The translations under genes and the position numbers were made by a program. A stretch of 60,582 nt of DNA, taken from positions 1-60,582 of the forward strand of contig JAJDCH010000006.1 of the NCBI GenBank assembly GCA_029260905.1, read 5' to 3'. This DNA is from Candidatus Levyibacteriota bacterium (lineage in GTDB: Bacteria; Patescibacteriota; Microgenomatia; Levybacterales; UBA12049). Each line of letters opens with the position of its first letter. Position 1 is the stretch's first letter. Below, piece by piece: positions 9,708 to 55,689 of this stretch. A model generated the notes under the pieces. The model did not search any database, was not told the DNA's origin, and saw nothing but the letters and a program-made list of their open reading frames with translations.

Positions 9708-10088
9708 TCATCCCTCTAGATACTCTTTCATCGGGTTCATGTAGTAATCAACCCATCCTTTTTCAATCTCATCCAATTCATTATCAGGCACATCTATTTG
9801 AGAAAGATCCACCTTTGTACCAGAACCCTTTTTACTAAATGTGAAAGTAACAACTGATGGCTTATCCCATTTGCCACCAAACCATTCCTGAACCAATCTC
9901 TTCTGAGGTATAACTTCAATATTTTTTCCCCAAATATCTCCACCCCAAAGCTCAAATTCAAAACCATTCTCATCACTTATTTTCGCAGGCCCACCGCCCC
10001 AGCTGTTTATTTCTTTTGAATCAACAAATGCTTTCCAGACATCCACAACTGGCGCATCAATTACATAAGTTTGTTTTAGTTTTTTCAT
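9708..10088 (-). CDS. SRPBCC/AHA1-like domain protein
   Basis: IDAPVVDVWKAF, WGG, LVQEW, GWVDYY motifs. Confidence 0.85.
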   Translation of the reverse strand: MKKLKQTYVIDAPVVDVWKAFVDSKEINSWGGGPAKISDENGFEFELWGGDIWGKNIEVIPQKRLVQEWFGGKWDKPSVVTFTFSKKGSGTKVDLSQIDVPDNELDEIEKGWVDYYMNPMKEYLEG

Positions 10089-10193
10089 ATCTCACGACGT
10101 GGAACAAACAGTCTAGAACAAAACAAAAGATAAGACAATACCTTTTGTCCGTTGTCATTCTGATTTTTGTCTGTTAAACTAAAAAAGTTGCCC

Positions 10194-11477
10194 ATGGGTT
10201 TTATTAAAAACTACGATCAATTAGCCACCAATGACAACCGTAAAATCATACTAAGCCTCATTGAAGAAGCCTACAAATCAATCCAACCCAAACAAATTTT
10301 TGATGAACATTTCAAACTTACCGGAAATCAACTAGAAATTAAAGGTCAGGCTTTTGATCTCTCTAAATTTGAACAAATCAAGCTAGTCGGCTTTGGCAAA
10401 GGCTCTGCTGAAATGTGCAGGATTATCGAAGAAACACTTGGCGACAGACTACACGAGGGGTTTGATATCGATGTTATAGATGAGCAAAAATTCTCCAAAA
10501 TTAACTACACCAAGGGCACCCATCCCCTTCCCTCTGTAGAAAATATCGAATACACAAAAAAAGCGCTTAATTATCTTGAAGGAACAACTGAAAAAGATCT
10601 GGTACTCATAGTTGTATGCGGTGGTGGATCAGTACTTTTTGAAGCACCATATAAAATAGATTTGGAAACATTGACCAAGGTAAATGATACGCTTTTAGAT
10701 TCAGGCGCCAACATTACCGAGATGAATGTAATAAGACGCCATCTTTCTCGTGTCAAGGGAGGAAACTTAGCAAAAACCCTCTACCCATCAACTGTTGCAG
10801 CACTGCTCTTCTCAGATGTACCAGGAAATGACTTGTCAGTCATTGCATCAGGCCCAACTGTCAAAGACCATACCACTATGGCTGATGTAAAAAATATTCT
10901 TGATAAATACCAAATACTTGAAAAGGTGCAAATCACACCTGATGATTTTCTTGAAACCCCGACTGATGATAAATACTTTGAAAAAGTCCACAACATTCTC
11001 ATGCTCAGCAATCACACAGCTCTTAATGCAATGGAGAAAAAAGCAAAAGAACTTGGCAGGCAGGCTTTTGTCATGACTGATAGACTTCAAGGAGATGCAA
11101 GAAAGCTTGGTGAAAAATTGATTCTTGAAACAGCACCTGGACAAATACTTCTGGCAGGCGGTGAAAGTACGATTAAGATAACAGGTGATGGAAAAGGTGG
11201 TCGTAATCAGGCGCTGGTTCTTTGCTCTCTTCCCTATCTGAACGACAAAACAGCAATTGCCAGCTTTGGCTCAGATGGCTGGGATTTTTATCATTTTGCA
11301 GGAGCTATAGCTGATCAAGACACTTTAAAGAAAATAGATGATATGGAACTTGACGTAGAAGAATATTTGTCGGATGATAATAGTTACGGGTTTTGGGAAA
11401 AAACAGGTGACGGAATCGACACAGGAAAAATGGAATCAAACGTGTCAGATTTATTTATTGTCTATAAATCAAATTAA
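10194..11477 (+). CDS. Glycerate 2-kinase (DUF4147/MOFRL, GckA/TtuD family)
   Basis: GFGKGS, HPLP, CGGGSVL, RRHLSRVKGG, SDVPGNDLSVIASGPT, GGE, GGRNQ, SDGWD motifs. Confidence 0.9.
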   Translation: MGFIKNYDQLATNDNRKIILSLIEEAYKSIQPKQIFDEHFKLTGNQLEIKGQAFDLSKFEQIKLVGFGKGSAEMCRIIEETLGDRLHEGFDIDVIDEQKFSKINYTKGTHPLPSVENIEYTKKALNYLEGTTEKDLVLIVVCGGGSVLFEAPYKIDLETLTKVNDTLLDSGANITEMNVIRRHLSRVKGGNLAKTLYPSTVAALLFSDVPGNDLSVIASGPTVKDHTTMADVKNILDKYQILEKVQITPDDFLETPTDDKYFEKVHNILMLSNHTALNAMEKKAKELGRQAFVMTDRLQGDARKLGEKLILETAPGQILLAGGESTIKITGDGKGGRNQALVLCSLPYLNDKTAIASFGSDGWDFYHFAGAIADQDTLKKIDDMELDVEEYLSDDNSYGFWEKTGDGIDTGKMESNVSDLFIVYKSN

Positions 11478-11482
11478 CAATT

Positions 11483-12376
11483 ATGAATAGCAACCAACTA
11501 AAAGATTTAAAACTCAAAGCCAATGAAATTCGTCGTCTTATTATCGAGGCGCTTGATGGCGCCAATCACAACACAGGCTCAGGACATACAGGCGGCCCGC
11601 TTGGCATGGCTGATGTGTTTGCCGCGCTTTATTTCAATTTCATGAAACACGATCCCCAAAATCCTGATGATCCAGATCGCGACAGGCTTCTTCTCTCCAA
11701 TGGTCATATTTGCGCAGTTCTCTACTCAAGCCTTGCTTTATCTGGCTATTTTCCAACTAGTGAGCTAAAAACATTTAGAGGTTTTGAAACACGTCTTCAG
11801 GGGCATCCTCACCGAGGCGTTCTCCCCGGTCTTGAGAACACATCAGGACCACTTGGTGAGGGACTTTCTCAAGCAATTGGCATTGCTCTTGCACGAGACA
11901 TTGATAAAAAGACCTACACTGTTTACTGCGCAACATCTGACGGTGAACACCAGGAGGGAAACATCTGGGAAGCTGTGATGCTTGCAGGCAAATTAAAAAT
12001 CAATAACCTAATTCAAATAATTGACTTTAACAACATCCAGATTGATGGACCGGTTGATAAGACCATGCCGCTTGAGCCTTTCCGCGCAAAATATGAATCA
12101 TTCAATTGGCATGTGATTGATATTGATGGCAATGATATGAAAGAGATAGTTGATGCAATCAGTCAAGCAAAGGAAATAAAAGACAAACCTGTTATCATAA
12201 TTGCGCGTACTATCCCTGGTAAGGGAGTCAGCTTTATGGAGGGTGATTACAGATGGCATGGGATGCCACCTGGCCTCAAAGATGTAAGCGGCGCGCCGCC
12301 AAAAGACGAACAGGTAGCAGTCGCATTTAAAGAGATTGAAGAAGAACGGAAAAAAATTATAATGGGGAAAGCGTGA
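11483..12376 (+). CDS. tktA: Transketolase, N-terminal (TPP-binding) subunit
   Basis: SGHTGGPLG, DRDRLLLSNGH, LQGHP, SGPLGEGLS, SDGEHQEG, NNIQIDG. Confidence 0.95.
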   Translation: MNSNQLKDLKLKANEIRRLIIEALDGANHNTGSGHTGGPLGMADVFAALYFNFMKHDPQNPDDPDRDRLLLSNGHICAVLYSSLALSGYFPTSELKTFRGFETRLQGHPHRGVLPGLENTSGPLGEGLSQAIGIALARDIDKKTYTVYCATSDGEHQEGNIWEAVMLAGKLKINNLIQIIDFNNIQIDGPVDKTMPLEPFRAKYESFNWHVIDIDGNDMKEIVDAISQAKEIKDKPVIIIARTIPGKGVSFMEGDYRWHGMPPGLKDVSGAPPKDEQVAVAFKEIEEERKKIIMGKA

Positions 12377-12782
12377 AGGGTGAAGGGTAAAGATAAAATA
12401 GATGGTAAAATCATATAAAGAACTCATTGTTTGGAAAAAATCAATGGAGATGGTAAGATTTATTTATCAACTAACAGAAAGCTTTCCAAAAGACGAGCTA
12501 TATGGTTTACGGTCTCAGATGGAAAGATCTGCTGTTGCAATCCCAAGCAATATTGCAGAGGGATATTTGAGACGACATCGCAAAGAGTATGTTCAGTTTT
12601 TATCAATATCCCTCAGCTCTGCAGCTGAACTTGAAACACAAATTCTTGTTTGTAAATCATTAAAAAAGTTTAAACATATAGATTTTTCTGAAACAGAATC
12701 ATTACTAAATGAGGTATTAAAAATGTTATTTGTTATGATAAATAAGATGGCTTGACGCTTAACCCTTAACGCTTTACGCTTA
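12368..12782. mobile_element. Four-helix-bundle gene enclosed by inverted heptamer arrays (full element)
   Basis: Left arm AAAGCGT-GAAGGGT-GAAGGGT-AAAG (12368-12392, contains the tktA stop); right arm CTTG-ACGCTTA-ACCCTTA-ACGCTTT-ACGCTT (12751-12782) is its near reverse complement. Mobility is inferred. Confidence 0.65.
12402..12755 (+). CDS. Four-helix-bundle protein (23S rRNA IVP / TIGR02436 family)
   Basis: SYKELIVWKKS, FPKDELYGLRSQMERSAVAIPSNIAEG, SAAELETQ signature. Confidence 0.92.
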   Translation: MVKSYKELIVWKKSMEMVRFIYQLTESFPKDELYGLRSQMERSAVAIPSNIAEGYLRRHRKEYVQFLSISLSSAAELETQILVCKSLKKFKHIDFSETESLLNEVLKMLFVMINKMA

Positions 12783-12785
12783 AAT

Positions 12786-13778
12786 ATGTTAAATCCAAAC
12801 TTAAAACTAAATACAAAATTATTTGACGTAGACGTTGAAAAAAAACCAACCCGCGCAGGCTTTGGCACAGGCCTTCTTGCTCTTGGCAAAAAAGACAAAA
12901 ATGTAGTCGGGCTTTGTGCTGATCTCACAGAGTCAACCCAAATGAACCTTTTTGCTGATGCATTTCCTGAGAGATTTTTCCAAGTCGGTGTTGCTGAGCA
13001 AAATATGGCAGCAGTTGCAGCAGGACTAGGAGTTACTGGCAAAACAGCTTTTATTTCCAGTTATGCTACTTTCTCCCCTGGTAAAAATTGGGAAACAATC
13101 AGAACCACAATTGTTTACAACAAAGCAAATGTCAAAATAGCAGGCCATCATTCAGGAATCATGACAGGTCCTGATGGAGCAACTCACCAAGCAACTGAGG
13201 ATATAGCCATAACACGCTGCTGGCCGGGTATTGAAGTATATGTTCCATGTGATGCAATTGAAGCAGAAAAAGCAACTATTGCGTCTGCTAAAACACAAAA
13301 ACCAGTTTATCTTCGCTACTCAAGAGACAAAACTCCGCTAATCACAACTGCAGATACACCTTTTGAGGTAGGCAAACTACAGGACTTCTGGGTCAGTGAA
13401 AATCCGCAAGTAACTATCTTTGCAACAGGCTATATGCTTTACTATGCATTAGTTGCCGCAAAAGAGCTTGAAGATGAAGGCATAAATACAATAGCTGTAA
13501 ATGTCGCAACCATTAAACCACTTGACTCAAATGAAGTTCTCAAATTTACCAATCAAACAAGCGCTGTTGTAACAGTTGAAGATCATCAAATAACAGGCGG
13601 CATGGGCAGTGCAATTGCTGAATCTCTGGCCAAAACCAATCCCCTGCCGATTGAGTTTGTCGGCATGCAAGACGTATTTGGCGAAACAGGAACACCAGCC
13701 CAACTCTTAAAGAAATACAAAATGAATCCTGAAGCAATCAAAGAAGCTGTAAAAAGAGTGATACGTAGAAAGCGTTAA
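12786..13778 (+). CDS. tktB: Transketolase, C-terminal subunit
   Basis: TRAGFG, ADLTES, GVAEQNM, GPDGATHQ, PVYLR, IKPLD, VEDH, GMGSAIAE. Confidence 0.95.
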   Translation: MLNPNLKLNTKLFDVDVEKKPTRAGFGTGLLALGKKDKNVVGLCADLTESTQMNLFADAFPERFFQVGVAEQNMAAVAAGLGVTGKTAFISSYATFSPGKNWETIRTTIVYNKANVKIAGHHSGIMTGPDGATHQATEDIAITRCWPGIEVYVPCDAIEAEKATIASAKTQKPVYLRYSRDKTPLITTADTPFEVGKLQDFWVSENPQVTIFATGYMLYYALVAAKELEDEGINTIAVNVATIKPLDSNEVLKFTNQTSAVVTVEDHQITGGMGSAIAESLAKTNPLPIEFVGMQDVFGETGTPAQLLKKYKMNPEAIKEAVKRVIRRKR

Positions 13779-13840
13779 GGGTAAAGCGTCAAGGGTGAAG
13801 TTTTTTTCTTTCCCCTTAGCGCTTAGCGCTTTCCCCTTAA
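13769..13840. repeat. Empty inverted heptamer-array hairpin (AAAGCGT/AAGGGT class)
   Basis: AAAGCGT-TAAGGGT-AAAGCGT-CAAGGGT-GAAG, T7 loop, CTTT-CCCCTTA-GCGCTTA-GCGCTTT-CCCCTTA. Confidence 0.85.
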
Positions 13841-13845
13841 ATATT

Positions 13846-15501
13846 ATGGATCAAAACCTGCTCACAGAATTAAAAGAACTTATCTCAGGTGATGTGGAAA
13901 CATCAGAAGAGGTACTAAGCAAATATTCACACGACGCAAGTATTTTTGAGATACGTCCTCAAGTCGTTGTCTTCCCCAAAACAGATGCCGACATCCAAAA
14001 TCTCATAAAATTCGTTGCCAAACACAAAAAAGAACACCCAGATCTCAATATCACAGCACGGGCTGCCAGCACCTGCATGTCAGGAGGAGGACTTGGCACA
14101 TCAATTATTGTTGCTTTCCAGAAATATTTTAACCATCAGCCAAAAATTGTGGGCAAAATAGCCTCAACTCAGCCTGGTGTTTTTTATCGTGATTTTGAGA
14201 AAGAAACCCTCAAACATGATCTAATTTTTCCCTCTTTCCCCTCCTCCCGTGAGATTTGCGCAATGGGCGGAATTGTCAATAACAACGCAGGCGGTGAAAA
14301 ATCTCTAGAGTATGGCAAAACTGAAGATTATATCCATTCACTACAAATGATCCTTGCTGATGGTAATGAATACGAAATAAAACCACTAAACAAAAATCAG
14401 CTTGAAGAAAAAATGGCGCAAGATAACTTTGAAGGCATAGTTTATAAAAAAACCTACGAACTTATAACTAATAACTTAGAGCTTATAACCAAAGCCAAGC
14501 CAAAGGTTAGCAAAAACTCAAGCGGCTATTTCCTCTGGAATGTCTGGGATCCTGAAAAAAAGGTCTTTGATCTTTGTAAATTATTTACCGGCGCGCAGGG
14601 AACTCTAGGCATCATGACTGAGGCTAAGCTCAAACTCGTGTCAACCAAAAAACACCGTGAAATGATGATTATTTTTCTTCATGACTTCAAACACTTAGCA
14701 GAAATCATCAATAAAGTCTTGCCTCTTGAACCTGAAAGTTTTGAGGCTTACGATGACAAAACGCTTAAGCTTGCTCTCAAATTCTTTCCCGCATTTTCCA
14801 AAAAACTTGGCACCAGATCTGTTCTGACAACTGCGCTCGAATTTTTGCCTGAAATGCAAATGTACAAAGATCACAAACTCCCCAAGCTCGTCATGCAAAT
14901 TGATTTTGCTGATGATCACCTATCAGTTCTTAAAGAGAAAATAAATGATCTGACTGAGAAACTCCAATCAATTCATCCGAATGATGTCAAAGTAGCAATT
15001 GATACTGAAGAAAAAAAATACTGGCTGATCAGACGAGACAGCTTCGGCCTTCTGAGAAAACACGTTGAGAATATGTATTCTTCCCCTTTTATTGATGACA
15101 TCGTTGTTAATCCTGAACATCTGCCTGAGTTTTTACCACAATTTAATCAGATTTTGGATAAATATCCATCTGTAATTGGCACTTTTGCAGGACACGTCGG
15201 AAACGGCAATTTTCACTTTATCCCGCTTGTCGATCTCAAAGATCCCAAAGAACAAAAACTAATTCCCCAAATCTGTGATGAAGTTTTTAAGCTTGTCATC
15301 AAATACGGTGGCTCAACATCTGGCGAGCATAATGATGGCTGGATAAGAACACCTTTTATGAAATATCAGTTTGATGAGAAGATCCTAAAGCTTTTTGAGG
15401 AAACCAAAAATATTTTTGATCCAGATGGGATATTTAACCCACACAAAAAAGTCAACGGAGATCTGGATTTTGCTATGAAGCATGTAAGAACTAGTTGGTA
15501 G
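13846..15501 (+). CDS. FAD-binding oxidoreductase (GlcD/D-lactate dehydrogenase-like)
   Basis: YSHDASIF, PQVVVFP, MGGIVNNNAGG, GAQGTLG, GHVGNGNFH, GEHNDG, DPDGIFNP. Start at ATG 13846 after the hairpin. Confidence 0.88.
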   Translation: MDQNLLTELKELISGDVETSEEVLSKYSHDASIFEIRPQVVVFPKTDADIQNLIKFVAKHKKEHPDLNITARAASTCMSGGGLGTSIIVAFQKYFNHQPKIVGKIASTQPGVFYRDFEKETLKHDLIFPSFPSSREICAMGGIVNNNAGGEKSLEYGKTEDYIHSLQMILADGNEYEIKPLNKNQLEEKMAQDNFEGIVYKKTYELITNNLELITKAKPKVSKNSSGYFLWNVWDPEKKVFDLCKLFTGAQGTLGIMTEAKLKLVSTKKHREMMIIFLHDFKHLAEIINKVLPLEPESFEAYDDKTLKLALKFFPAFSKKLGTRSVLTTALEFLPEMQMYKDHKLPKLVMQIDFADDHLSVLKEKINDLTEKLQSIHPNDVKVAIDTEEKKYWLIRRDSFGLLRKHVENMYSSPFIDDIVVNPEHLPEFLPQFNQILDKYPSVIGTFAGHVGNGNFHFIPLVDLKDPKEQKLIPQICDEVFKLVIKYGGSTSGEHNDGWIRTPFMKYQFDEKILKLFEETKNIFDPDGIFNPHKKVNGDLDFAMKHVRTSW

Positions 15502-15522
15502 TTAGGATGCTTAGGAGGCCTT

Positions 15523-16575
15523 TTAGTGTGCTGGAACAGGGAATCCGTTCTGTTTGCACCATTCAGCAAACTCATCAGCAGGCATTGTTTGCTTTCTTAC
15601 ATCATACTGAATTTGCTTAGCATCAACTTCTACTTTTACATCTACATCTGAATCTCCACCTTCAGCATTAGCTTTTGCATCTCCGCCCTCTGCTTTTGCA
15701 TCTGAGTTTGCGCTTGAGTTTGCTTCTGATTTTGAAGTTCCAATTCCATCGTTGTTTGATGTTGCTTTTCCGCCTTCAGCTGTGATATCACCTATTTCTA
15801 CAAGTCCATTAGGAAGCTCTGTTATGCCTTCTGTTTCTTCAGTTGTCTTGATTCTAGCATTTGGACTCCTGAAGTTAACATCTCTTGATCCAACCACTGA
15901 ATCGGTAATAGTAGTAGTTTTGCCCAGGTTACAGACATCTCCTTTTCCTACTGAAATTGTATCACCCTTGACTATGCAGATTTCTTTTTGTTTCTGCTTT
16001 GAAAATACAGAACCTTCTCCGCTTATTTGTCCCTGTGAACCATCTCCGCTAACATCTACTGACTTGTCACCAAATGATAAGTTTTTCAAATCATCTAAGT
16101 TTATATGAGTTGTATTTGGACCTGCAATTATCTGTATTCCTCTTTCATTTTCACCTACTTGAACACTTTTTACTTCAAATGATGGTTTTGCTGGACGATA
16201 TGATGTTCTTTTTGGTGCTGCTGGTTTTGCTGGAGACTCTTTCTTGCCGTGGTGTGCTGGATCTCCACATGCACAGTCCTGAAGCTCAGCAACTGCTGCT
16301 GTCAATCCATTTATTTGTGTCGTAAGTGCTGATAAATGTGCTGTTGTGTCTGATGATGCCAACTGGGCTTCTAAACTTCCTTGAAGAGCTGATACTTCAC
16401 CATGTAGTGCTTCCATATTCCCTTTGTATTGTTCTCCGGCAAGATGTGCGCCTGTAACTCCTCCAGTTGCTGCGAGCGCAACCGCTCCTATAACTGTTCC
16501 AATTTTTCCTTGCCCTGTTTCGCCAGAAAATTTGGAAGGTGTTCTGTGTTTTGGTTGATATTCTTTATTGCTCAT
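15523..16575 (-). CDS. Hypothetical membrane-anchored protein with coiled coil and repetitive beta-rich C-terminus
   Basis: Long ORF; hydrophobic anchor, heptad region, AEGG repeats; no family recognised. Confidence 0.65.
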   Translation of the reverse strand: MSNKEYQPKHRTPSKFSGETGQGKIGTVIGAVALAATGGVTGAHLAGEQYKGNMEALHGEVSALQGSLEAQLASSDTTAHLSALTTQINGLTAAVAELQDCACGDPAHHGKKESPAKPAAPKRTSYRPAKPSFEVKSVQVGENERGIQIIAGPNTTHINLDDLKNLSFGDKSVDVSGDGSQGQISGEGSVFSKQKQKEICIVKGDTISVGKGDVCNLGKTTTITDSVVGSRDVNFRSPNARIKTTEETEGITELPNGLVEIGDITAEGGKATSNNDGIGTSKSEANSSANSDAKAEGGDAKANAEGGDSDVDVKVEVDAKQIQYDVRKQTMPADEFAEWCKQNGFPVPAH

Positions 16576-16693
16576 ATTTTTATAAAATTAATTATTTTGT
16601 TGGGACAGATTTTTATTTTTATTTTCGGGGCAGAAAATTTATTTATATTTATTTATATTTATTTTGGCAGTGATAAGCATTATAGGGTGTCAT

Positions 16694-16721
16694 TGTAAGT
16701 TTTATGTAAGAAGCATGTAAG
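16694..16721. promoter_or_regulatory. Three TGTAAG direct repeats at 11-bp period (possible OmpR/PhoB-type box)
   Basis: TGTAAG at 16694, 16705 and 16716. Confidence 0.45.
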
Positions 16722-16885
16722 AGTTCGTGCCTGAATGATTTATTTTTTTCGTTTTTATTTCTTATTTCTTTCTAGTTTTGTATCCTCTAGGTAATTATTA
16801 TAACACTTATTTTATATCAAGACGAACTATTTTCTGATTAAAAGCAGTCCTTGAATTTTAATAAAATAATGTTTAAGATAGATTT

Positions 16886-17926
16886 ATGTCTGATAATTTA
16901 GCTGATATTGCAAGATCGCTTGTCGCAAAAGGCAAAGGCATTCTTGCAGCAGATGAATCATCCCCCACCTGCGCGAAGCGCTTTGACTTAGTTGGTATCG
17001 AATGTACCGAAGAGACACGTCGTGAGTACAGAGAGCTGCTTTTGACTACACCTGAGGCAAGTCAGCATATGAGTGGTGTGATTCATTTTGATGAGACTTT
17101 CTGGCAATCAACAGACTCGCAGACCTTCCCCGAATATCTTAAATCCCAAAACATCATACCAGGCATCAAAGTAGACAAAGGCCTCATCCCACTTGATAAA
17201 TTTGAGGGTGAGAAGATCAGCCAGGGTCTTGACGGACTAAAAGAACGCATGGATAAATACTTTGAATCAGGCGCTAGATTTGCTAAATGGAGATCGGTTA
17301 TCGCAATTGGCGATGGCATTCCGACCCCCCAATGCATACAAGCCAACGCATTTGTCCTCACCCGCTATGCCGCCATCTGCCAGGCAGCCGGGATAGTGCC
17401 AATCGTTGAACCCGAAGTATTGTACGATGGTACACATACTATAGATAGTTGCTATGAAACCATTATCAAGGTTTATGATGCCCTCTTTGGCTCACTCAGA
17501 GAATACAGAGTAGATATGTCAGGGGTGATCCTTAAGACAAGTATGGTTCTTCCTGGAAAAACATCAGGAATATCCATAAATTATGATGAAGTCGCCGAAA
17601 AAACAGTCAAAGCGCTTCACGAACATCTACCACAAGACCTGGGAGGTGTGGTTTTCCTATCAGGAGGTCAAACCAGCAACGATGCATTTATAAACTTAAA
17701 TAGAATCGCAAAACTTGGTCCACACCCATGGGGTCTTACCTTCTCCTACTCAAGAGCGCTTCAAGATCCAGTCCTCAAACTCTGGGCCAAAGACAGAGAA
17801 AACAAAAAAGCAGTTCAGGAGCTTTTTGCAAATCAACTCAGGCTGGCTGGAGCTGCAAGCCTTGGCGAACTGAACGAATCTGAGCTACACGATAATACTG
17901 AGGCTACCAAATCCCAAGACCTCTAG
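16886..17926 (+). CDS. Fructose-bisphosphate aldolase class I
   Basis: KGILAADES, IPGIKVDKG, GARFAKWR, IVPIVEPEV, FLSGGQ, TFSYSRALQ. Confidence 0.95.
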   Translation: MSDNLADIARSLVAKGKGILAADESSPTCAKRFDLVGIECTEETRREYRELLLTTPEASQHMSGVIHFDETFWQSTDSQTFPEYLKSQNIIPGIKVDKGLIPLDKFEGEKISQGLDGLKERMDKYFESGARFAKWRSVIAIGDGIPTPQCIQANAFVLTRYAAICQAAGIVPIVEPEVLYDGTHTIDSCYETIIKVYDALFGSLREYRVDMSGVILKTSMVLPGKTSGISINYDEVAEKTVKALHEHLPQDLGGVVFLSGGQTSNDAFINLNRIAKLGPHPWGLTFSYSRALQDPVLKLWAKDRENKKAVQELFANQLRLAGAASLGELNESELHDNTEATKSQDL

Positions 17927-17927
17927 A

Positions 17928-18278
17928 AAATAACCCAATACTACCAATAACCCAATCAGCAAATCAATGCAGAATACCAGATGTAGAATAATTTGTTTCT
18001 TTACCTTCTTTTCTAACTATTGCATATTTTGCAATAAAATCTTTTCTGCTATCTGTTCCGTCTGCTTCTTGATCGTTTGCTCCCATTGAAGTAGCTGAGC
18101 GTGTTATCTGAGTTATTATAATAATATTCTCAGGAGTCTTTGGAAGTTGTTTTACTAATTTTAAAATCCTTATTATAAATTGATAAATTCTTTCATGAAT
18201 ATCCTGAATCTTTTCTGTGTTTTGCATTGGATTATTGATTAGTAGTATTTGTAGTATTGGTTTATTTGTTTATTTATT
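17928..18278. mobile_element. Inverted octamer arrays enclosing a truncated four-helix-bundle gene
   Basis: Arm 17928-17981 (AATAACCC/AATACTACC/AATCAGCA) and arm 18214-18278 (reverse complement AATAAACA/AATACTAC/AATAATCC). Mobility is inferred. Confidence 0.6.
17964..18227 (-). pseudogene. Four-helix-bundle (IVP family) gene lacking its C-terminal helix
   Basis: DIHERIYQF...LPKTPEN...QITRSATSMGANDQEADG...DFIAKYAIVRKEGKETNY then abruptly STSGILH*; roughly 30 aa shorter than the 117-aa paralogue. Confidence 0.75.
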
Positions 18279-21982: not shown

Positions 21983-22100
21983 TCTAATTTTAATATCTAA
22001 ACACCAAATAAATCCAAAATATAAATATCTAATTTGTTTTGGAATTTGTACTTTTACTATTTGGTATTGTTTAGGATTTAGAATTTAGAGCTTAGGATTT
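21983..22100. repeat. Empty inverted heptamer-array hairpin (TCTAAAT class)
   Basis: AATATCT-AAACACC-AAAT...AAATATCT then GGAATTT...AGGATTT-AGAATTT-AGAGCTT-AGGATTT; overlaps the msrB stop. Confidence 0.75.
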
Positions 22101-22511
22101 ATCTTCCTTTTTCTTGAACTCAAGAGCTGCGGAGTTGATACAATAGTGCTGATTGGTTGGAGAAGAATTATCGTCAAACAAATGCCCCAGATGACCGCCA
22201 CACGTTTTACAAACTACTTCCGTTCGGGACATTCCCAAACTATTATCTTGGACTAGCTCAACCGTGTCCCTACTTGCCACATCAGCAAAGCTCGGCCAGC
22301 CCTCGAGTCCAGGAACATCTGATTCATACTTGGCATCACTCTTAAAAAGCACGCTCCCACAACCAGCACACGTATAGTCGCCTGTTTGACTATTTTGCAA
22401 AAGCTCTCCTGTCCCCGGGCGCTCCGTTCCCTTCTCTCGCAGTACTTTATACTGCTCAGGCGTCAGTCTTTCCTTCCAATATTTGTCGTCCTTGTCCCGC
22501 ATGTTGCCCAT
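22092..22511 (-). CDS. msrB: Peptide methionine-R-sulfoxide reductase
   Basis: LTPEQYKVLREKGTERP, CAGC, GWPSF, RTEVVCKTCGGHLGHLF, YCINS. Confidence 0.95.
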   Translation of the reverse strand: MGNMRDKDDKYWKERLTPEQYKVLREKGTERPGTGELLQNSQTGDYTCAGCGSVLFKSDAKYESDVPGLEGWPSFADVASRDTVELVQDNSLGMSRTEVVCKTCGGHLGHLFDDNSSPTNQHYCINSAALEFKKKEDKS

Positions 22512-30487: not shown

Positions 30488-30595
30488 AATTCTAAACTCT
30501 AAATACTAATATCTAAATCCTAAATAATTTCAAAATTCTAATTTAGAAATCATATTGTTTTGTACTTTTACTTTCGGTCATTTGATATTATTTAA
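30488..30595. repeat. Empty inverted heptamer-array hairpin (TCTAAAT class)
   Basis: AATTCT-AAACTCT-AAATACT-AATATCT-AAATCCT arm and GTACTTT-TACTTTC...GATATTATTT arm between the prs stop and recR start. Confidence 0.75.
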
Positions 30596-33096: not shown

Positions 33097-34641
33097 CTAT
33101 TTCAATTCTACAACAATATCTACACTATTTCCAGTAAGCATTTTCGCAGCTCTTGAAAGACTTTCCTGCACTTTTACATCATCTAGTCTTTCTTTGTGAA
33201 ATTTAAATTTTGATTCAATTAAAAGCATTTTTTTATCATAACTTTTTAATCTGCAACCCCGCAAGACTCCTGCAATTGTATGATTGTGATTTTTCATTTC
33301 ATCTATTAGACTATTCCAGAGAGTATCAAGCCACTCAGGTGTTATCTCAGAGCTTGATGTATGCATTAACTCAATTGAAGGCTTGGTATTTACCTTTTCA
33401 GTATTTGTTGCTTTTTTAGAAATGGATCCATTTATGGCATTTTCCTTTGCGATATTACCAATCTTTTTTTTAAAATCTCCTATATTGCCAGTACCGTATT
33501 TTGACTGACTTTTAACCCCTTCTACTCCTTTATCAACTTCCAAATTTTCAGCTGTTGCTTCACGTGTTTTTATAGAATACTCAATCACTGCAAGCTCCAG
33601 CGGAAGCTGTGGAAGAACTGAGTATTTCATCTCCTGATATGATTTTGAGAGAATATCAAAAAGCAAAGCAATCTCAGCTATTTCAAAATTAGCACCAGGT
33701 ATTTCAAATACCTCTTGGGTTGCATTTGTTTTGGAGAGAAGAAGTTTGTGGAGCGTTTCTATAACCTGCTGCAAAAAATATCTAAAATCAATTCCCGTTT
33801 CAGTTAATTTTGAAATTGTTTTCATGCCTTCCCCACTATCTTTTTTATAAAGTGAAGCAAGAAGCGCTATAACATAATGATTTATACTTGTAACTCTGTA
33901 TTTTTCCTCAATCATTTCTCCTGTTATCTTCTTGCCGTTTGACTGCATCACAATCTCCTCCAATATCTTTGTCCCATCCCTAAATCCGCCATCCGACAAA
34001 TGAGCAATTGATAAAAGAGCCTCATCATCAATAGCAACCCTCTCGCCTTTTGTTATACGTTTGAATGAACGAATCAGCTCCATGTCAGTTGCCAAATGAA
34101 AAGAAATATGAAAACATCGCGATACAATTGTTGATGGAACTTTTTCAAGAGCGGTCGTACAAAGTATAAATATGGCATGATTCGGTGGCTCTTCAAGTGT
34201 CTTAAGAAGTGCATTAAATGCCTCAGTTGTTAGCATATGAACCTCATCTATTATATAGACCTTCTTGCTTGCGGAAATAGGCGAAAGCCCAATTTTTTCC
34301 TTTAGATCACGTATCTCATCTATCCCCCTATTACTTGCCCCATCTATCTCCAGAATATCCATATTTGTTCCTTCAGTAATTGATAGACATTGATCACATT
34401 TATTACAAGGCTCTATTTCCCTCCCCTTTACGCTTTCCCCCTTACGCTTTTTGTCAGTACAATTAAGGACTTTAGCTACAATTCTGGCTGTTGATGTTTT
34501 ACCAAGACCCTTTGGGCCTGTGAAGAGAAATGCATGCGGAGTATTTTCCTGATTTTTTAGAACCGATAAAAGACTTTCCCTTACCTTTTCACTATCTAAA
34601 TCATCAATAATCTGTGGTCTGTATTTTCTATAAAAAACCAT
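33097..34641 (-). CDS. dnaX: DNA polymerase III subunit gamma/tau
   Basis: FYRKYRPQ, GPKGLGKTS, EIDGASNRGID, IIDEVHML, FNALLKTLEEPP, TIVSRC. Confidence 0.97.
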   Translation of the reverse strand: MVFYRKYRPQIIDDLDSEKVRESLLSVLKNQENTPHAFLFTGPKGLGKTSTARIVAKVLNCTDKKRKGESVKGREIEPCNKCDQCLSITEGTNMDILEIDGASNRGIDEIRDLKEKIGLSPISASKKVYIIDEVHMLTTEAFNALLKTLEEPPNHAIFILCTTALEKVPSTIVSRCFHISFHLATDMELIRSFKRITKGERVAIDDEALLSIAHLSDGGFRDGTKILEEIVMQSNGKKITGEMIEEKYRVTSINHYVIALLASLYKKDSGEGMKTISKLTETGIDFRYFLQQVIETLHKLLLSKTNATQEVFEIPGANFEIAEIALLFDILSKSYQEMKYSVLPQLPLELAVIEYSIKTREATAENLEVDKGVEGVKSQSKYGTGNIGDFKKKIGNIAKENAINGSISKKATNTEKVNTKPSIELMHTSSSEITPEWLDTLWNSLIDEMKNHNHTIAGVLRGCRLKSYDKKMLLIESKFKFHKERLDDVKVQESLSRAAKMLTGNSVDIVVELK

Positions 34642-38055: not shown

Positions 38056-38610
38056 ATGGATCCTCAATCTCTTAATAATCTTGATCCCAAACTCCGCGAA
38101 ACTTACGAACGCGTAATGGGTGGTGCGGCAAGCGCAGCCAGAGCAGCGGTCCCAGATCAAAATACATCAGAGGATACGAATTTACCTGATAATCCTCCGC
38201 CACCATCCTCATTTCAAGTCCCACAAGGACCCGAACTCACACCAAAACCATCTGATACGCTAGCTGTATCGCCTGATGATAACGATCAACAACCTATCCA
38301 AACCCAACCAGAACAACCCCAGCAGTCAACTGAACAGCCAGAACCAAAAGCAACTTTCTCAACTCCTCTTAGTCAGCAAAACCAACAGATTAATACTCCG
38401 CAGCCAACTGGCCCTGTTAATCTGCCTGATCTAAACAATGTCCCCAACCTGTCAGAAAACAAGAATGCGAACAATCAAGCGCATGAAGCTCAGGAAACGT
38501 CTCCTGTTCTTAAAATTCTATACATTTTCGGAGGAACTGTATTTTTCCTGATCTATATTTTTCTCTGGGCCAAAATCTTCAAACTCCCAATCCCCTTCCT
38601 ATCGTTCTAA
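38056..38610 (+). CDS. Hypothetical Pro/Gln-rich protein with C-terminal TM
   Basis: Start moved to MDPQSLNNLDPKLRETYERVMG (TATAAA 7 nt upstream); disordered middle; C-terminal TM. Confidence 0.65.
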   Translation: MDPQSLNNLDPKLRETYERVMGGAASAARAAVPDQNTSEDTNLPDNPPPPSSFQVPQGPELTPKPSDTLAVSPDDNDQQPIQTQPEQPQQSTEQPEPKATFSTPLSQQNQQINTPQPTGPVNLPDLNNVPNLSENKNANNQAHEAQETSPVLKILYIFGGTVFFLIYIFLWAKIFKLPIPFLSF

Positions 38611-38697
38611 TTGGAATTAGAAATTAAGAATTAGGAAATTACATCTCTGTCTCACATATATTAAAACCGTCGCATTTTCCGCGTTCGCGGGATTTTG

Positions 38698-40440
38698 TTA
38701 CTTCTTAATTTTTTGAAGTATCTCGTCAAAACTCAGAAGCTTGGATTCTTTCTCAGTTCGTTTTTTAAATTCAATCTTTTCCCCTGCTTGCCCTGAGCCA
38801 TGCTGAAGGGTCTTTTCACTTACCACCAAACGCACAGGAATTCCGATCAAATCTGCATCTGCAAATTTGTTGCCAACTGATACCTCCCGGTCATCATACA
38901 AAACCTCTACTCCCACATCCTGCAATTTTTCGTAAATTTCATCTCCAAAATTTTTAACTTTTGAATTGTCATTTTGAGTTTTGACTTTTGAATTTTGAAT
39001 TATAATCAGATGCACATCAAACGGCGCAATTGACTCAGGCCAGATAATACCACGATCATCATTGCTTACCTCAACCACCGCAGCCAGTGTCCTCCCAATT
39101 CCTATTCCGTAGCAACCCATATAGTAAGGCTTTTCCGATCCATCTTCATCGATAAAAGTAGCGCCTTTCATTTTTTTACTGTAATGATATCCAAGCTGGA
39201 AAATATTTCCAACTTCAATTCCTCGGAATACCTCGTAAGGTTCGCCTGTTTCAGGATAGAGATCTCCTGCTCTGGTTTCTTTAAAGTCATAAAATTTTTC
39301 AGGTAGTGGCAAGTCCCGCTCAAAGTTTACATTTATTACATGGACGTCTGTTTTATTTGATCCCATTTCAAAATTAACTCTTCCTCTCATTGAATCATCC
39401 AGAAACACTTTCACCTCTTTTGGTAGATTGAGAATTCCTGCATATCCGACCTCTGCCCCGGTCAGCTCCTTAATTTTCTCAGACGCAATCAATGTCAAGC
39501 TCTGACAGCCAATGATTCTTTTAAGTTTTATTTCATCAATATCGTATTCTCCACGCAGTGCTGCTGCGATAACATCTCCTTTTTCTGTTTCAAAAAGAAT
39601 TGTTTTTGTCGTTTTCTCAACTGGAATATTTAAGAATTTTGCCAGTGCCTCAACTCCGATAATTCCTTTTCCAACAACATCCTCCATTGGTTTTGGCTCT
39701 TCCCCTTTCTGGTCAAATGGTGTTGCCATGGTTGGTGCAATTTCTTTATTAAAATACATCTTTTTCGATGGAACATAAAAAATAGTATCCTCTCCTGCAT
39801 TTGATTTGACCTGAAATTCGTGCGCATAATCCCCACCTATGTCACCATTGTCTGCACCCACCATGAATGTATTAAGTCCGACTCGCTCAAATATTTTTGT
39901 GTAAGTTTTTGACATTTTTTCATATTCTTTCTTAAAATCATCCTCTGATGCGTGAAATGAATATCCATCTTTCATGATAAACTCCCTAACCCTCAGAAGT
40001 CCCCCTCGAGCTCTTAGCTCGTCTCGGAATTTGGAAGCAAACTGATAAAGCTGAAAAGGCAAATCTTTATAGCTAATTTGAAACTTACGAACCAAATCAA
40101 CAAGCATTTCCTCAGCCGTCCCGCCGAGAACAAATTCCATATCACGTCGGTCTTTTATTTTAAGTAGGCCAAAATCAGCCTTGTCACGGTTGGTTTCTTT
40201 CCACAAATCAAGCGGATGGAGAATTGGAACGAGGATTTCCTGGGCACCTGCTCTATCCATTTCTTCTTTAACTACTTTTATAATTTTCTGCTGCACTCTC
40301 TGTCCTAGAGGCAGGAAATAATATCTTCCCGCTGTACTTTCCCTTATAAATCCTGCTTGATACAAAAGCTGATGCGATTTCAGAGTTGCATCTTTTGGTA
40401 TGTCTTTAATTGTCTTTCCAAAAAGGTGTGAATATTTCAT
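38698..40440 (-). CDS. proS: Proline--tRNA ligase (bacterial type with editing domain)
   Basis: SHQLLYQAGFI, FRDELRARGGLLRVREFIMKDGYSF, GIEVGNIFQLG, MGCYGIGIGR. Confidence 0.96.
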   Translation of the reverse strand: MKYSHLFGKTIKDIPKDATLKSHQLLYQAGFIRESTAGRYYFLPLGQRVQQKIIKVVKEEMDRAGAQEILVPILHPLDLWKETNRDKADFGLLKIKDRRDMEFVLGGTAEEMLVDLVRKFQISYKDLPFQLYQFASKFRDELRARGGLLRVREFIMKDGYSFHASEDDFKKEYEKMSKTYTKIFERVGLNTFMVGADNGDIGGDYAHEFQVKSNAGEDTIFYVPSKKMYFNKEIAPTMATPFDQKGEEPKPMEDVVGKGIIGVEALAKFLNIPVEKTTKTILFETEKGDVIAAALRGEYDIDEIKLKRIIGCQSLTLIASEKIKELTGAEVGYAGILNLPKEVKVFLDDSMRGRVNFEMGSNKTDVHVINVNFERDLPLPEKFYDFKETRAGDLYPETGEPYEVFRGIEVGNIFQLGYHYSKKMKGATFIDEDGSEKPYYMGCYGIGIGRTLAAVVEVSNDDRGIIWPESIAPFDVHLIIIQNSKVKTQNDNSKVKNFGDEIYEKLQDVGVEVLYDDREVSVGNKFADADLIGIPVRLVVSEKTLQHGSGQAGEKIEFKKRTEKESKLLSFDEILQKIKK

Positions 40441-46846: not shown

Positions 46847-46956
46847 ATTTCTAAGCTCTAATTTCTAATTACCTAATCAAATCCTAATTATAAATTTATA
46901 AATTAGGTTTTAGACATTTTTTAGAAATTAGGTTAATTTAAGTCAATTAGGAATTA
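46847..46956. repeat. Empty inverted heptamer-array hairpin (TCTAAAT/TTCTAAT class)
   Basis: ATTTCTA-AGCTCTA-ATTTCTA-ATTACCTA versus TAGAAAT-TAGGTTAAT...TAGGAAT between the tsf stop and frr start. Confidence 0.8.
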
Positions 46957-52854: not shown

Positions 52855-52892
52855 ACACATCTTTTTACAACGATCGTTTCAAAAAGATGTGT
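52855..52892. repeat. 38-bp imperfect palindrome
   Basis: ACACATCTTTTT-ACA-ACGATCGT-TTC-AAAAAGATGTGT. Confidence 0.85.
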
Positions 52893-52968: not shown

Positions 52969-54015
52969 TCAAAGCTGATCGTTAATCAAAAATGCCAGAA
53001 CTAGTGAAACTGCCAGGCCAAATCCTGCTCTCAAAAGATCTTTTCTCACTAACTTCAACGTATGTGAGTAAGGTTTTTTCTTATGAAGTGTTGCACGTAG
53101 CGCAATCTCCCGCCCTGCAAGTAGGCCCAGGAATACCCAAGTCGTACTCATCGGCAAATCATTTATCCATTTGAAATAAACCAAGACCAAACCATATACA
53201 AAATCTATAATTGTTGCAGATTTTACATATAAAACATCTGTTTTCTCTGTAACAACTTTCTGAATCTCTCCTCCCCTGCGAGAGATGATATATCCAAGCG
53301 CAAAAAACATAAACAGCAAAACAACAATTGCCTCAAATCCGCTCAAGACTCGGGGTAAATATACTGTAGCATTGGCTGCATCTTGAGTAAGCCAAGCGCT
53401 CCACAGAAATCCTGTTGACAACCATTGCAGTATGCGCCACTTTCTTTCTTGTTTTTTGGTAAGCTTTCGATCAAGCTTTTGCTGTCTTTTTTTGACTAAA
53501 TATCCAATGGCTCCCCAGACAAGAAGCGCCACCAGGAACGAAAGGATATATCCAGTAATGGTTTTGTTTATCATGCCGGTTATTGTTTTTGAGGAAGAAA
53601 ATGTGGCAAGAATCAAAAAAGTAGTTGACACAGGCATCCTATATCTCGTCAATGAAATCAATATAATCGGTGCCAGAAGCTGAAGAAAAGAAAAATCACT
53701 TGGCTGAGGGATTCTATTTAACCTGTCAAAACTCACACTCCCTGCATTTGCAAACCAACCATATCCAAGAGTCACAAGCATAATCCCACCCATAAAAAGC
53801 CAGAGGATTTTCCAGGGAGTATTTCTATTGGAAGATAAAAAAGTACCTAGCGTCTGAATACTGTCATTACTAACTGTTGAAAACGCGGCTACCGCAAATC
53901 CAAACCACATTGCTAAAATCGGCTGATCAAATATAATCCCAGCTGTCAGAATTAGAACTGACATTATAGAAATAAAAACTACGTTGTTGCCGAAAAACGC
54001 ACGAGCTGCTCTCAT
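52969..54015 (-). CDS. Multi-pass membrane protein, distantly PiT/PHO4 (phosphate/sulfate permease)-like
   Basis: SNDSIQTLGTF, MPVSTT, QDAANATV and PMSTTWV resemble the duplicated PiT signatures. Confidence 0.55.
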   Translation of the reverse strand: MRAARAFFGNNVVFISIMSVLILTAGIIFDQPILAMWFGFAVAAFSTVSNDSIQTLGTFLSSNRNTPWKILWLFMGGIMLVTLGYGWFANAGSVSFDRLNRIPQPSDFSFLQLLAPIILISLTRYRMPVSTTFLILATFSSSKTITGMINKTITGYILSFLVALLVWGAIGYLVKKRQQKLDRKLTKKQERKWRILQWLSTGFLWSAWLTQDAANATVYLPRVLSGFEAIVVLLFMFFALGYIISRRGGEIQKVVTEKTDVLYVKSATIIDFVYGLVLVYFKWINDLPMSTTWVFLGLLAGREIALRATLHKKKPYSHTLKLVRKDLLRAGFGLAVSLVLAFLINDQL

Positions 54016-54142: not shown

Positions 54143-54180
54143 ACACATTTTTTATACACGATCGTGTATAAAAAATGTGT
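54143..54180. repeat. Perfect 38-bp palindrome
   Basis: ACACATTTTTTATACACGATCGTGTATAAAAAATGTGT equals its own reverse complement. Confidence 0.92.
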
Positions 54181-55593: not shown

Positions 55594-55689
55594 AATCAAC
55601 TAATTTCCAATTAACCAATCATCTAATTATAAACCCTCAAAATGTATTGTTTAATTTGTTGATTGGTTTATTAGATGATTTGTTTATTA
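55594..55689. repeat. Empty inverted octamer-array hairpin
   Basis: AATCAACT-AATTTCC-AATTAACC-AATCATCT-AAT versus ATTGTTTA-ATTTGTTG-ATTGGTTT-ATTAGATG-ATTTGTTT-ATT. Confidence 0.85.

Follow-up and report, generated by a model that had tools for sequence, protein, structure and literature searches.

Genes for the intervening-sequence protein (IVP, or S23p) and the intervening sequences (IVSs) of rRNA genes have been known since the early 1990s, and to our knowledge neither a function nor a means of spread has been established for them; the tandem heptamers of cyanobacteria and Xanthomonas are, as far as we know, likewise unexplained. Short rRNA IVSs that lack an open reading frame (ORF), such as those of Salmonella, Campylobacter and Yersinia, are stem-loops of about 90-150 nt that are removed by RNase III. 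In the 23S rRNA IVS of Coxiella burnetii, the IVP ORF follows tandem GACAGAT heptamers whose copy number varies among strains; RNase III cuts within the stem in vitro, and rapid amplification of cDNA ends (RACE) places RNA ends in the stem (PMC4990558). IVP ORFs also occur inside insertion sequences of the 16S and 23S rRNA genes of the candidate phyla radiation (bioRxiv 10.1101/2024.02.27.582315) and between cas genes (PMC3936711). The subject of this report is a hairpin of 69 bases between the transketolase gene tktB and an FAD-linked oxidase gene (FADox) in a 60,582-nucleotide stretch of a Candidatus Levyibacteriota genome (contig JAJDCH010000006.1; hereafter, the window), one junction downstream of an IVP gene that is enclosed by tandem heptamers of the same class. 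The classic intervening-sequence element of rRNA genes is found here to live between ordinary genes as well, and we favour, by analogy and with somewhat better than even confidence, the reading that the hairpin is an ORF-less member of the IVS-type IVP cassette family at an mRNA junction, forming a stem of the RNase III type in the operon transcript.

Tandem heptamers have been described in other settings. The GGGAATC heptamers of Xanthomonas often form convergent pairs of arrays that could fold into stem-loops, with 70-75 pairs per genome (PMC4692102), and tandem heptamers are also known as the short tandemly repeated repetitive (STRR) sequences of cyanobacteria (GGGGAYT) and from Beggiatoaceae (TAACTGA) (PMC4679880). 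Like the arrays described below, all of these are tandem and mostly intergenic, and they occur in lineages rich in IVP paralogues; the papers that describe them make no link to IVP, a link that was seen here on cyanobacterial plasmids, the one of these groups that the analysis covered. The convergent GGGAATC pairs of Xanthomonas may be the same thing as IVP arms. No literature was found that generalizes heptamer arms to IVP genes or that describes ORF-less copies at mRNA junctions, and only the Coxiella paper links heptamers to IVP.

The hairpin and the genes that it separates are the following:

12786 to 13778, plus strand: tktB, transketolase C-terminal subunit (Transket_pyr, Transketolase_C), between arm B (5') and arm C (3').
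13776 to 13778, plus strand: tktB stop codon TAA, within left arm C (AAG CGT TAA, first and second units).
13770 to 13800, plus strand: left arm C, AAGCGTT AAGGGTA AAGCGTC AAGGGTG AAG, four heptamers of the form AAGSGTN, containing the tktB stop.
13801 to 13807, plus strand: loop, TTTTTTT.
13808 to 13838, plus strand: right arm D, CTT TCCCCTT AGCGCTT AGCGCTT TCCCCTT, its units being diverged AAGGGGA and AAGCGCT types.
13846 to 15501, plus strand: FADox (PF01565, PF02913), the downstream gene, with its ATG 7 nt past right arm D.

The empty hairpin is real and non-random. In register, the 31 positions of arms C and D give 21 Watson-Crick pairs, 3 G.U pairs, 1 A.C and 6 other mismatches, and the minimum free energy (MFE) fold of the sense strand has 24 pairs, again including 3 G.U, at -28.7 to -29.0 kcal/mol (z -3.35 relative to shuffles, 0 of 200 being equally stable); the antisense fold reaches -25.7 kcal/mol (z -3.36). 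The original prediction, made from the letters of the window, had the structure begin in the tktB stop codon, close on a loop of seven T residues and contain about three G.U wobbles on the sense strand, all of which agrees with these results. It also placed the end of the element 5 nt before the next ATG, which is correct for the end point that it chose, the last arm base (13838) being 7 nt from the ATG at 13846. A three-unit pattern of the heptamer class AAGSGKN matches the window 8 times, with 0.01 matches expected by chance, and the 8 matches fall into four arrays, namely arms A (12365-12392), B (12750-12783) and C (13770-13800) and an array internal to dnaX (34422-34450). The predicted sharing of a heptamer class with the tktA/tktB element holds in full for arm C; arm D belongs to the class and departs from arrays A, B and C in having C or G at unit position 6. 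Scans of the window with Rfam and for tRNA gave zero matches (no rRNA or other Rfam family), an exact-protein look-up of the window tktB returned no record, and no Shine-Dalgarno-like sequence precedes the FADox ATG at 13846.

The full form of the cassette occupies the preceding junction of the operon:

11483 to 12376, plus strand: tktA, transketolase N-terminal subunit, upstream neighbour of the full cassette.
12365 to 12392, plus strand: left arm A, GGGGAAA GCGTGAA GGGTGAA GGGTAAA G, holding the tktA stop TGA.
12402 to 12755, plus strand: IVP gene (117 aa), PF05635 (23S_rRNA_IVP; E 6e-36), PDB 2GSC (XCC0516; E 1.7e-22).
12750 to 12783, plus strand: right arm B, CTTGACG CTTAACC CTTAACG CTTTACG CTTAA, holding the IVP stop and ending 2 nt before the tktB ATG.

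As judged from sequence and profile matches, the full cassette is an IVP gene (PF05635, a predicted four-helix bundle of the Avd type) within inverted tandem AAGSGKN arrays. The closest solved structure to the window protein is XCC0516 of Xanthomonas, with a weaker match to bAvd. Arms A and B each contain stops in all three frames, because the 7-nt unit contains TGA or TAA. The AAGSGKN arrays flanking IVP at 12365-12392 and 12750-12783 bear out the earlier proposal that the hairpin is a gene-less copy of an IVP-bearing element one junction upstream.

With the IVP-bearing 23S rRNA IVSs of Leptospira and Coxiella, the family represented in the window shares a PF05635 gene between terminal inverted repeats which pair into a long stem, a 5' arm with tandem heptamers in varying copy number (in Coxiella, GACAGAT), and the coexistence of ORF-less with ORF-bearing versions, in a sporadic distribution among taxa that suggests mobility. 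The difference lies in location: 23S rRNA IVSs are found in helix 9, 25 or 45, whereas the window element, including a copy without the ORF, lies between protein genes of a sugar-metabolism operon. The classical definition of a 23S IVS, by its place inside a helix of the rRNA gene, does not extend to a hairpin between tktB and FADox, and the RNase III cleavage that is known for the Coxiella IVS would apply to the window hairpin by analogy only. The short IVSs of the Salmonella type are near in size (69 nt here) and are likewise non-coding extended hairpins with a stem base that restores the continuity of the host RNA; they differ in lying in rRNA, whereas the window hairpin lies at an mRNA junction and has arms of tandem heptamers. 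MITEs (transposable elements of the miniature inverted-repeat type) and repetitive extragenic palindromes with their mosaic elements (REP/BIME) are also short, non-coding intergenic palindromes with a longer gene-bearing relative and with copies at neighbouring junctions. Unlike these, the window element is accompanied by no transposase or RAYT gene, its gene-bearing relative encoding IVP instead, its arms are tandem arrays rather than unique terminal repeats, and its flanks (AGAAAG and AAATAT) show no direct duplication.

Close homologues of the window IVP (70-83% identity; 2505 hits overall) occur in Levy-, Gottesman- and Daviesbacteria, and in every context retrieved, including eight Patescibacteria junctions besides that of the window, an AAGSGKN array upstream of the gene is answered by an inverted array downstream. 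These contexts (ruvC-IVP-ruvA, cupredoxin-IVP-copA, MOFRL-IVP-tktA, GHMP kinase-IVP-MVD, ATP-grasp-IVP-CoA ligase and two others) have in common a left array that starts at the stop codon of the upstream gene or overlaps it, and a right array that abuts the downstream ATG. Of the cassette sites that could be judged, 15 of 16 have IVP co-directional with both neighbours. The number of units varies between samples of one locus (L081 and L086). Five metagenome contigs of 36-56% GC carry IVP with the same inverted-array anatomy; the scan for three AAGSGKN units from which they came was too permissive, since most of its 120 hits were unrelated heptamer arrays of GC-rich contigs or telomere-like repeats, only 5 having IVP. 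On plasmids of Cyanobacteria and Gemmatirosa, 8 of 10 IVP genes lie between inverted tandem arrays of other heptamers (GGGAARA, GGCAGRA, GTCAGRA, GGGAACA and GGGCAGG among them), one cassette being situated between cas6 and cas4. A cas6-IVP-cas4 cassette of a Pseudanabaena plasmid (L226) has about 17 AAAAGCT units before IVP, with inverted AGCTTTT units further upstream, and about 10 AAAAGCC units after IVP in direct orientation, which departs from the usual inverted layout.

Where two IVP proteins have 70% identity or more, their heptamer class is the same, and the position of the cassette differs in related genomes, being MOFRL/tktA in two loci (L009 and L221) and tktA/tktB in the window. 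Cassette and arms are shown by such comparisons to be inherited together, at junctions that differ among genomes. The window hairpin shares with this family the inverted arrays (24 pairs, z -3.35), the heptamer class and the filling of the junction from stop to start; its loop of 7 nt in place of a PF05635 gene between the arms makes it the ORF-less form.

The history of the junction can be approached through 80 loci with tktB relatives (64-81% identical; 717 kb in all), almost all of them from Candidatus Levyibacteriota and other Patescibacteria. The gene order MOFRL-tktA-tktB-FADox is retained in nearly all 80. The gap between tktB and FADox, scored at 76 loci, is -10 to 26 nt in 28, typically in the form RKK-TAA-(0-3 nt)-ATG; in 42 it is 39-134 nt and mostly filled with hairpins, many of them of tandem heptamers, with a sequence that varies by genome; and larger inserts are present in 6. 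Since stop and start are only 0-3 nt apart in many relatives, the window hairpin is an insertion into a junction that was tight and probably translationally coupled. The closest relative (L002) has an unrelated spacer of 44 nt at this junction, and L003 and L009 have 3 nt. Seven is the commonest tandem-repeat period in the 717-kb sample.

At least two other Levybacteria genomes have an empty hairpin of the same class at the same place. That of L229 (a 406-kb JGI contig, tktB 79% identical) begins after the same AAG codon and reads AAGGGTT AAGGGTA AAGCGTG AAGGGTG AAT / TCTTTT / CCCTT TACGCTT AACGCTT TTCCCT (-32.9 kcal/mol), and that of L001 (tktB 78% identical) reads AAGGGTT AAGGGTA AAGCGTT AAGGGGG AAG / TAAAAGT / CTTTAC, at which point the contig ends. 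The left arms of the L229, L001 and window hairpins match at 28 of 31 positions; of the 12 that are variable within the class, 9-10 match, as compared with about 5.6 estimated for two random arrays of the class. Identity at four-fold third-codon positions among these genomes is 0.32-0.44, which amounts to saturation, and the period-7 pattern, the order of units and the pairing have nevertheless been kept at the same nucleotide position. A neutral relic of such age would have lost its periodicity and pairing, which leaves constraint, homogenizing exchange between copies, or independent site-specific insertion at the same nucleotide.

At its tktA/tktB junction, L229 has a further empty hairpin of the same class (AAGGGAG AAGCGTA AAGCGTA AAGGGTG AAG / TATATA / CTTAACG CTTAACC CTTAACG CTTTACC CT), with a right arm nearly identical to arm B of the window. 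On this alignment, one and the same tktA/tktB hairpin has IVP in its loop in the window and is empty in L229. The original prediction had called the empty form either a deletion derivative or a pre-insertion target of the full element; the filled and empty pair fits both, and the empty form may be a product of IVP loss or a landing site for IVP. Empty hairpins also keep company with IVP genes elsewhere. In L094, IVP lies between two complete hairpins with two more at nearby junctions (four same-class empty hairpins in all), and in L216 a same-class empty hairpin adjoins IVP, with a complete hairpin upstream and a single inverted array downstream, as likewise in Gemmatirosa. Hairpin C/D was also considered as a fresh copy made from arm B, an idea suggested by complementarity at 24 of 25 positions and weakened by the orthologous empty hairpins of L229 and L001.

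The MOFRL/tktA, tktA/tktB and tktB/FADox junctions of the relatives (L001-L080) are hot spots for unrelated palindromic families. A GC-rich family (GGGCGGGTGGC...GACAGGACCCGCC) occurs in L001, L006 (twice) and L009, and another (GTCATCCTGAAC...GTTCAGGATGAC) in L004, L015, L016, L034, L059 and L231. In L231 (3333-3674), a gene for a 101-aa GIY-YIG protein, another small selfish cargo, follows a hairpin of the GTCATCCTGAAC type at the tktB/FADox junction. The junctions of the operon also carry many AT-rich heptamer hairpins, and adjacent junctions often have the same family (L027, L038, L059 and L067).

If the window hairpin is indeed an ORF-less IVS-type element, the analogy with rRNA IVSs of like anatomy in Coxiella, Leptospira and Salmonella predicts that the element is transcribed within the MOFRL-tktA-(IVP)-tktB-FADox operon and that pairing between its arms in the mRNA gives a stem of about 24 bp, which would be a substrate of RNase III. 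Cleavage of the full form may detach the IVP message from the transcript of the host genes, and for the empty form the outcome would be no more than a cut at the tktB/FADox junction or a structural bridge across it. The stop codons provided by the arms, together with a stem that brings the upstream stop beside the downstream start, could keep host expression tolerable and so allow the insertion to persist.

Several observations weigh against this reading. The C:D stem is imperfect, with a 7-nt bulge (one left unit) and an unpaired terminal right unit, and arm C complements arm B, which lies 1 kb upstream across tktB, at 24 of 25 positions, better than it complements its partner D. No rnc gene lies within the window, the one part of the genome that was covered. 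Two arrays of the class picked at random are already about 77% identical, and the orthology of the three empty copies is therefore held with moderate confidence on the strength of their alignment. The sequencing runs in which the locus was found are four biofilm DNA runs and no RNA run; in these four runs (3-7x depth, with contigs that break at the arrays), no excision, insertion or IVP-less joints were seen. Finally, the original prediction took the G.U pairs as a sign that the structure is selected as RNA, and this was not supported by the comparison of strands that it had itself proposed. Among 94 junction hairpins of the operon, in which all genes are co-directional, the sense strand has the better MFE in 44 and the antisense strand in 50 (Wilcoxon p 0.49), with G.U pairs making up 250 of 3087 pairs in the sense folds and 309 of 3171 in the antisense folds. 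When the arms of 13 independent IVP cassettes are aligned without gaps, with G:T and A:C scored equally, G:T occurs 25 times and A:C 32 times. The arms-only duplex energy favours the sense strand in 9-11 of 15 cassettes (Wilcoxon p 0.10-0.33), and 45-nt windows of the same 15 contain 34 G.U pairs on the sense strand and 35 on the antisense strand. Of the eight same-class empty hairpins, which give 12 G:T and 10 A:C in ungapped alignment, none folds less stably on the sense strand than on the antisense strand (the mean difference is about 4 kcal/mol), in a small, non-independent sample from only four loci. Metagenome empty hairpins oriented by flanking ORFs were dropped from the strand test, only three being usable and all three ambiguous. 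Family-wide, a sense-strand excess of G.U pairs is absent, and the signal is at best a weak lean; given the balance of mismatch types, the arms behave no less like DNA palindromes than like RNA stems. A role of the arms in RNA is better argued from the co-orientation of the cassette with its host operons (15 of 16).

This balance is what would be expected if the arms act as DNA, as the ends of a cassette or as recombination sites that work through a cruciform or single-stranded hairpin in the manner of integron attC sites, the empty hairpin being a solo site or landing pad with its AT-rich loop as the point of gene entry and exit. We consider this alternative rather improbable, and still the strongest of the competing ones. 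It would account for the filled (window) and empty (L229) versions of the tktA/tktB hairpin, for the presence of the cassette at different junctions (L009 and L221 compared with the window) with IVP 83% identical and host proteins 60-78%, and for the variation in unit number between samples of one locus. It would also account for a recurring pattern of near-perfect complements that flank a gene from outside: arms B and C around tktB (12751-12775 and 13769-13793) are complementary at 24 of 25 positions, better than the own arms of either hairpin, and the arrays R1 and L2 that directly flank the L094 IVP (2471-2491 and 2842-2869) at 16 of 16. Such complementarity would fit site-by-site recombination, or gene conversion, between hairpin sites, and is no proof of either. 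Against a role in DNA, no recombinase, transposase or nuclease gene accompanies the cassette, and in the surroundings of the cassettes examined no integrase was noted; IVP itself is a helical bundle of 117 aa for which we know of no catalytic activity; no target-site duplication is visible, and the four DNA runs, at only 3-7x depth, show neither excision nor insertion variants; and near-universal co-orientation with host operons is unexpected of a site that works purely at the level of DNA. A protein-centred explanation, in which the arrays are putative binding sites for IVP (a pentamer of Avd-related four-helix bundles) and the empty hairpin is a second operator tuning the translation or stability of tktB/FADox, seems unlikely to us. 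The arms co-vary with IVP lineage, same-class empty hairpins lie within a few kb of IVP genes (window and L094), the heptamer consensus is kept in sequence and not in pairing alone across saturated divergence, and homologues of Avd bind nucleic acid together with reverse transcriptase. Inheritance of whole cassettes would, however, explain the co-variation equally well, and L229 and L001 retain their empty hairpins without any IVP in the available 5-7 kb of sequence.

No more probable is an inert remnant, either a decaying trace of an earlier IVP cassette or a product of repeat slippage. The imperfect C:D stem and the drift of its right arm to AGCGCTT and TCCCCTT units are what decay would produce, and the abundance of unrelated palindromic families at operon junctions of Levybacteria suggests that insertions there are tolerated rather than needed. 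Set against this are the three genomes, saturated at four-fold sites (0.32-0.44), that have kept period 7, unit order, pairing and position, and if the three hairpins had instead been inserted recently, each on its own, at one nucleotide, the element would have to be active and site-specific. Termination or attenuation by a Rho-independent hairpin between tktB and FADox, the alternative named in the original prediction, would explain a stable stem-loop right after a stop codon and is very improbable. There is no run of T residues after the stem on either strand, the plus-strand tail being AAATATTATG and the T7 lying in the loop; a terminator scan of 10000-17000 gives no site at 13770-13845; FADox starts 7 nt past the stem, and about 76 relatives conserve this gene order; and at the next junction upstream the same arms surround a gene. 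An intrinsic terminator was rejected on the tail without a U-run and the blank scan.

A broader proposal, which we put forward as speculation and think more likely wrong than right, is that an unrecognized mobile one-gene cassette has inverted heptamer arrays as its cis-acting ends, with loops that serve as sites of entry and exit for IVP and a protein that recognizes its own heptamers, and that one such system lies behind rRNA IVSs, the IVP genes lodged between the genes of cas, ruv, cop and tkt loci, and the heptamers of the STRR kind in cyanobacteria and perhaps in Xanthomonas. Apart from this proposal, the locus and its comparisons join threads that have been separate: inverted heptamer arrays regularly bound IVP, and the unit is found both in rRNA and at operon junctions in mRNA; hairpins of the same class that lack the gene have lasted at one fixed junction over deep divergence, and one orthologous hairpin is filled or empty according to the genome. 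A hairpin of 69 nt, a protein of 117 aa and RNase III make a compact, testable system in which RNA-processing signals, protein-binding arrays and recombination sites can be told apart. For the annotation of Patescibacteria, it matters that the arrays break assemblies, provide the last codons and stops of host genes, and occasionally lie in frame inside genes.

The window contains another IVP:

17964 to 18227, minus strand: ORF of 87 aa, second, diverged IVP (PF05635, E 2e-12, profile positions 4-74).

This copy, which is probably truncated, lies between separate inverted arrays with a different unit of 8-9 nt (AATAACCC and AATACTACC) at 17928-17949 and 18246-18267, and its cassette (17928-18267) lies downstream of a pfkB kinase gene and convergent with an aldolase gene. 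A jackhmmer search from the window IVP through all ORFs of the window and the 80 loci found only the window copy and that of L009; it missed the second IVP, later caught by Pfam, so that absence of IVP by this screen is weak evidence. Near the full cassette, a sigma-70-like site (TTGAAG-16-TATAAT, 10/12) is situated at 12336-12363, just 5' of arm A inside the 3' end of tktA, in a region where the count of such sites is at chance level. One contig of a sequencing run (X2), from a co-occurring population, has AAGAAATAGAAAAATAAATTTAAAAATAAC rather than arm B right before the tktB start (12786), a hint that a related strain may lack the cassette at the tktA/tktB junction.

Same-class arrays also occur alone inside genes. 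The dnaX gene of the window (33097-34641, minus strand; DNA polymerase III gamma/tau) contains in frame, at 34422-34450, the array AAGCGTA AGGGGGA AAGCGTA AAGGGGA (coding strand), encoding KRKGESVKGRE between cysteines of the zinc module, a place at which we take the spacing to be about 8 residues longer by comparison with E. coli DnaX. Other solitary arrays inside genes are found in L216 (1612-1632 and 10044-10064) and L218 (7114-7141). Further intergenic arrays or hairpins of the window lie at 46854-46935 (CTAATTT), 55609-55685 (CCAATTA/CATCTAATTA), 30488-30560 (TCTAAAn), 38609-38641 (AATTAGG) and 22070-22101 (TTTAGAA), of which the first two form hairpins of about -18 kcal/mol between co-directional genes. 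An AATTTTG array of 7.6 units (38949-39001), encoding QNSKVKTQNDNSKVKNF, is situated within an ORF (38698-40440, minus strand) that from its translation alone resembles prolyl-tRNA synthetase, in the apparent anticodon-binding region. Two related, near-perfect palindromes of 38 nt (ACACATnTTTTT...AAAAAnATGTGT) at 52855-52892 and 54143-54180 (-14 and -21 kcal/mol) lie on either side of a minus-strand gene (52969-54015).

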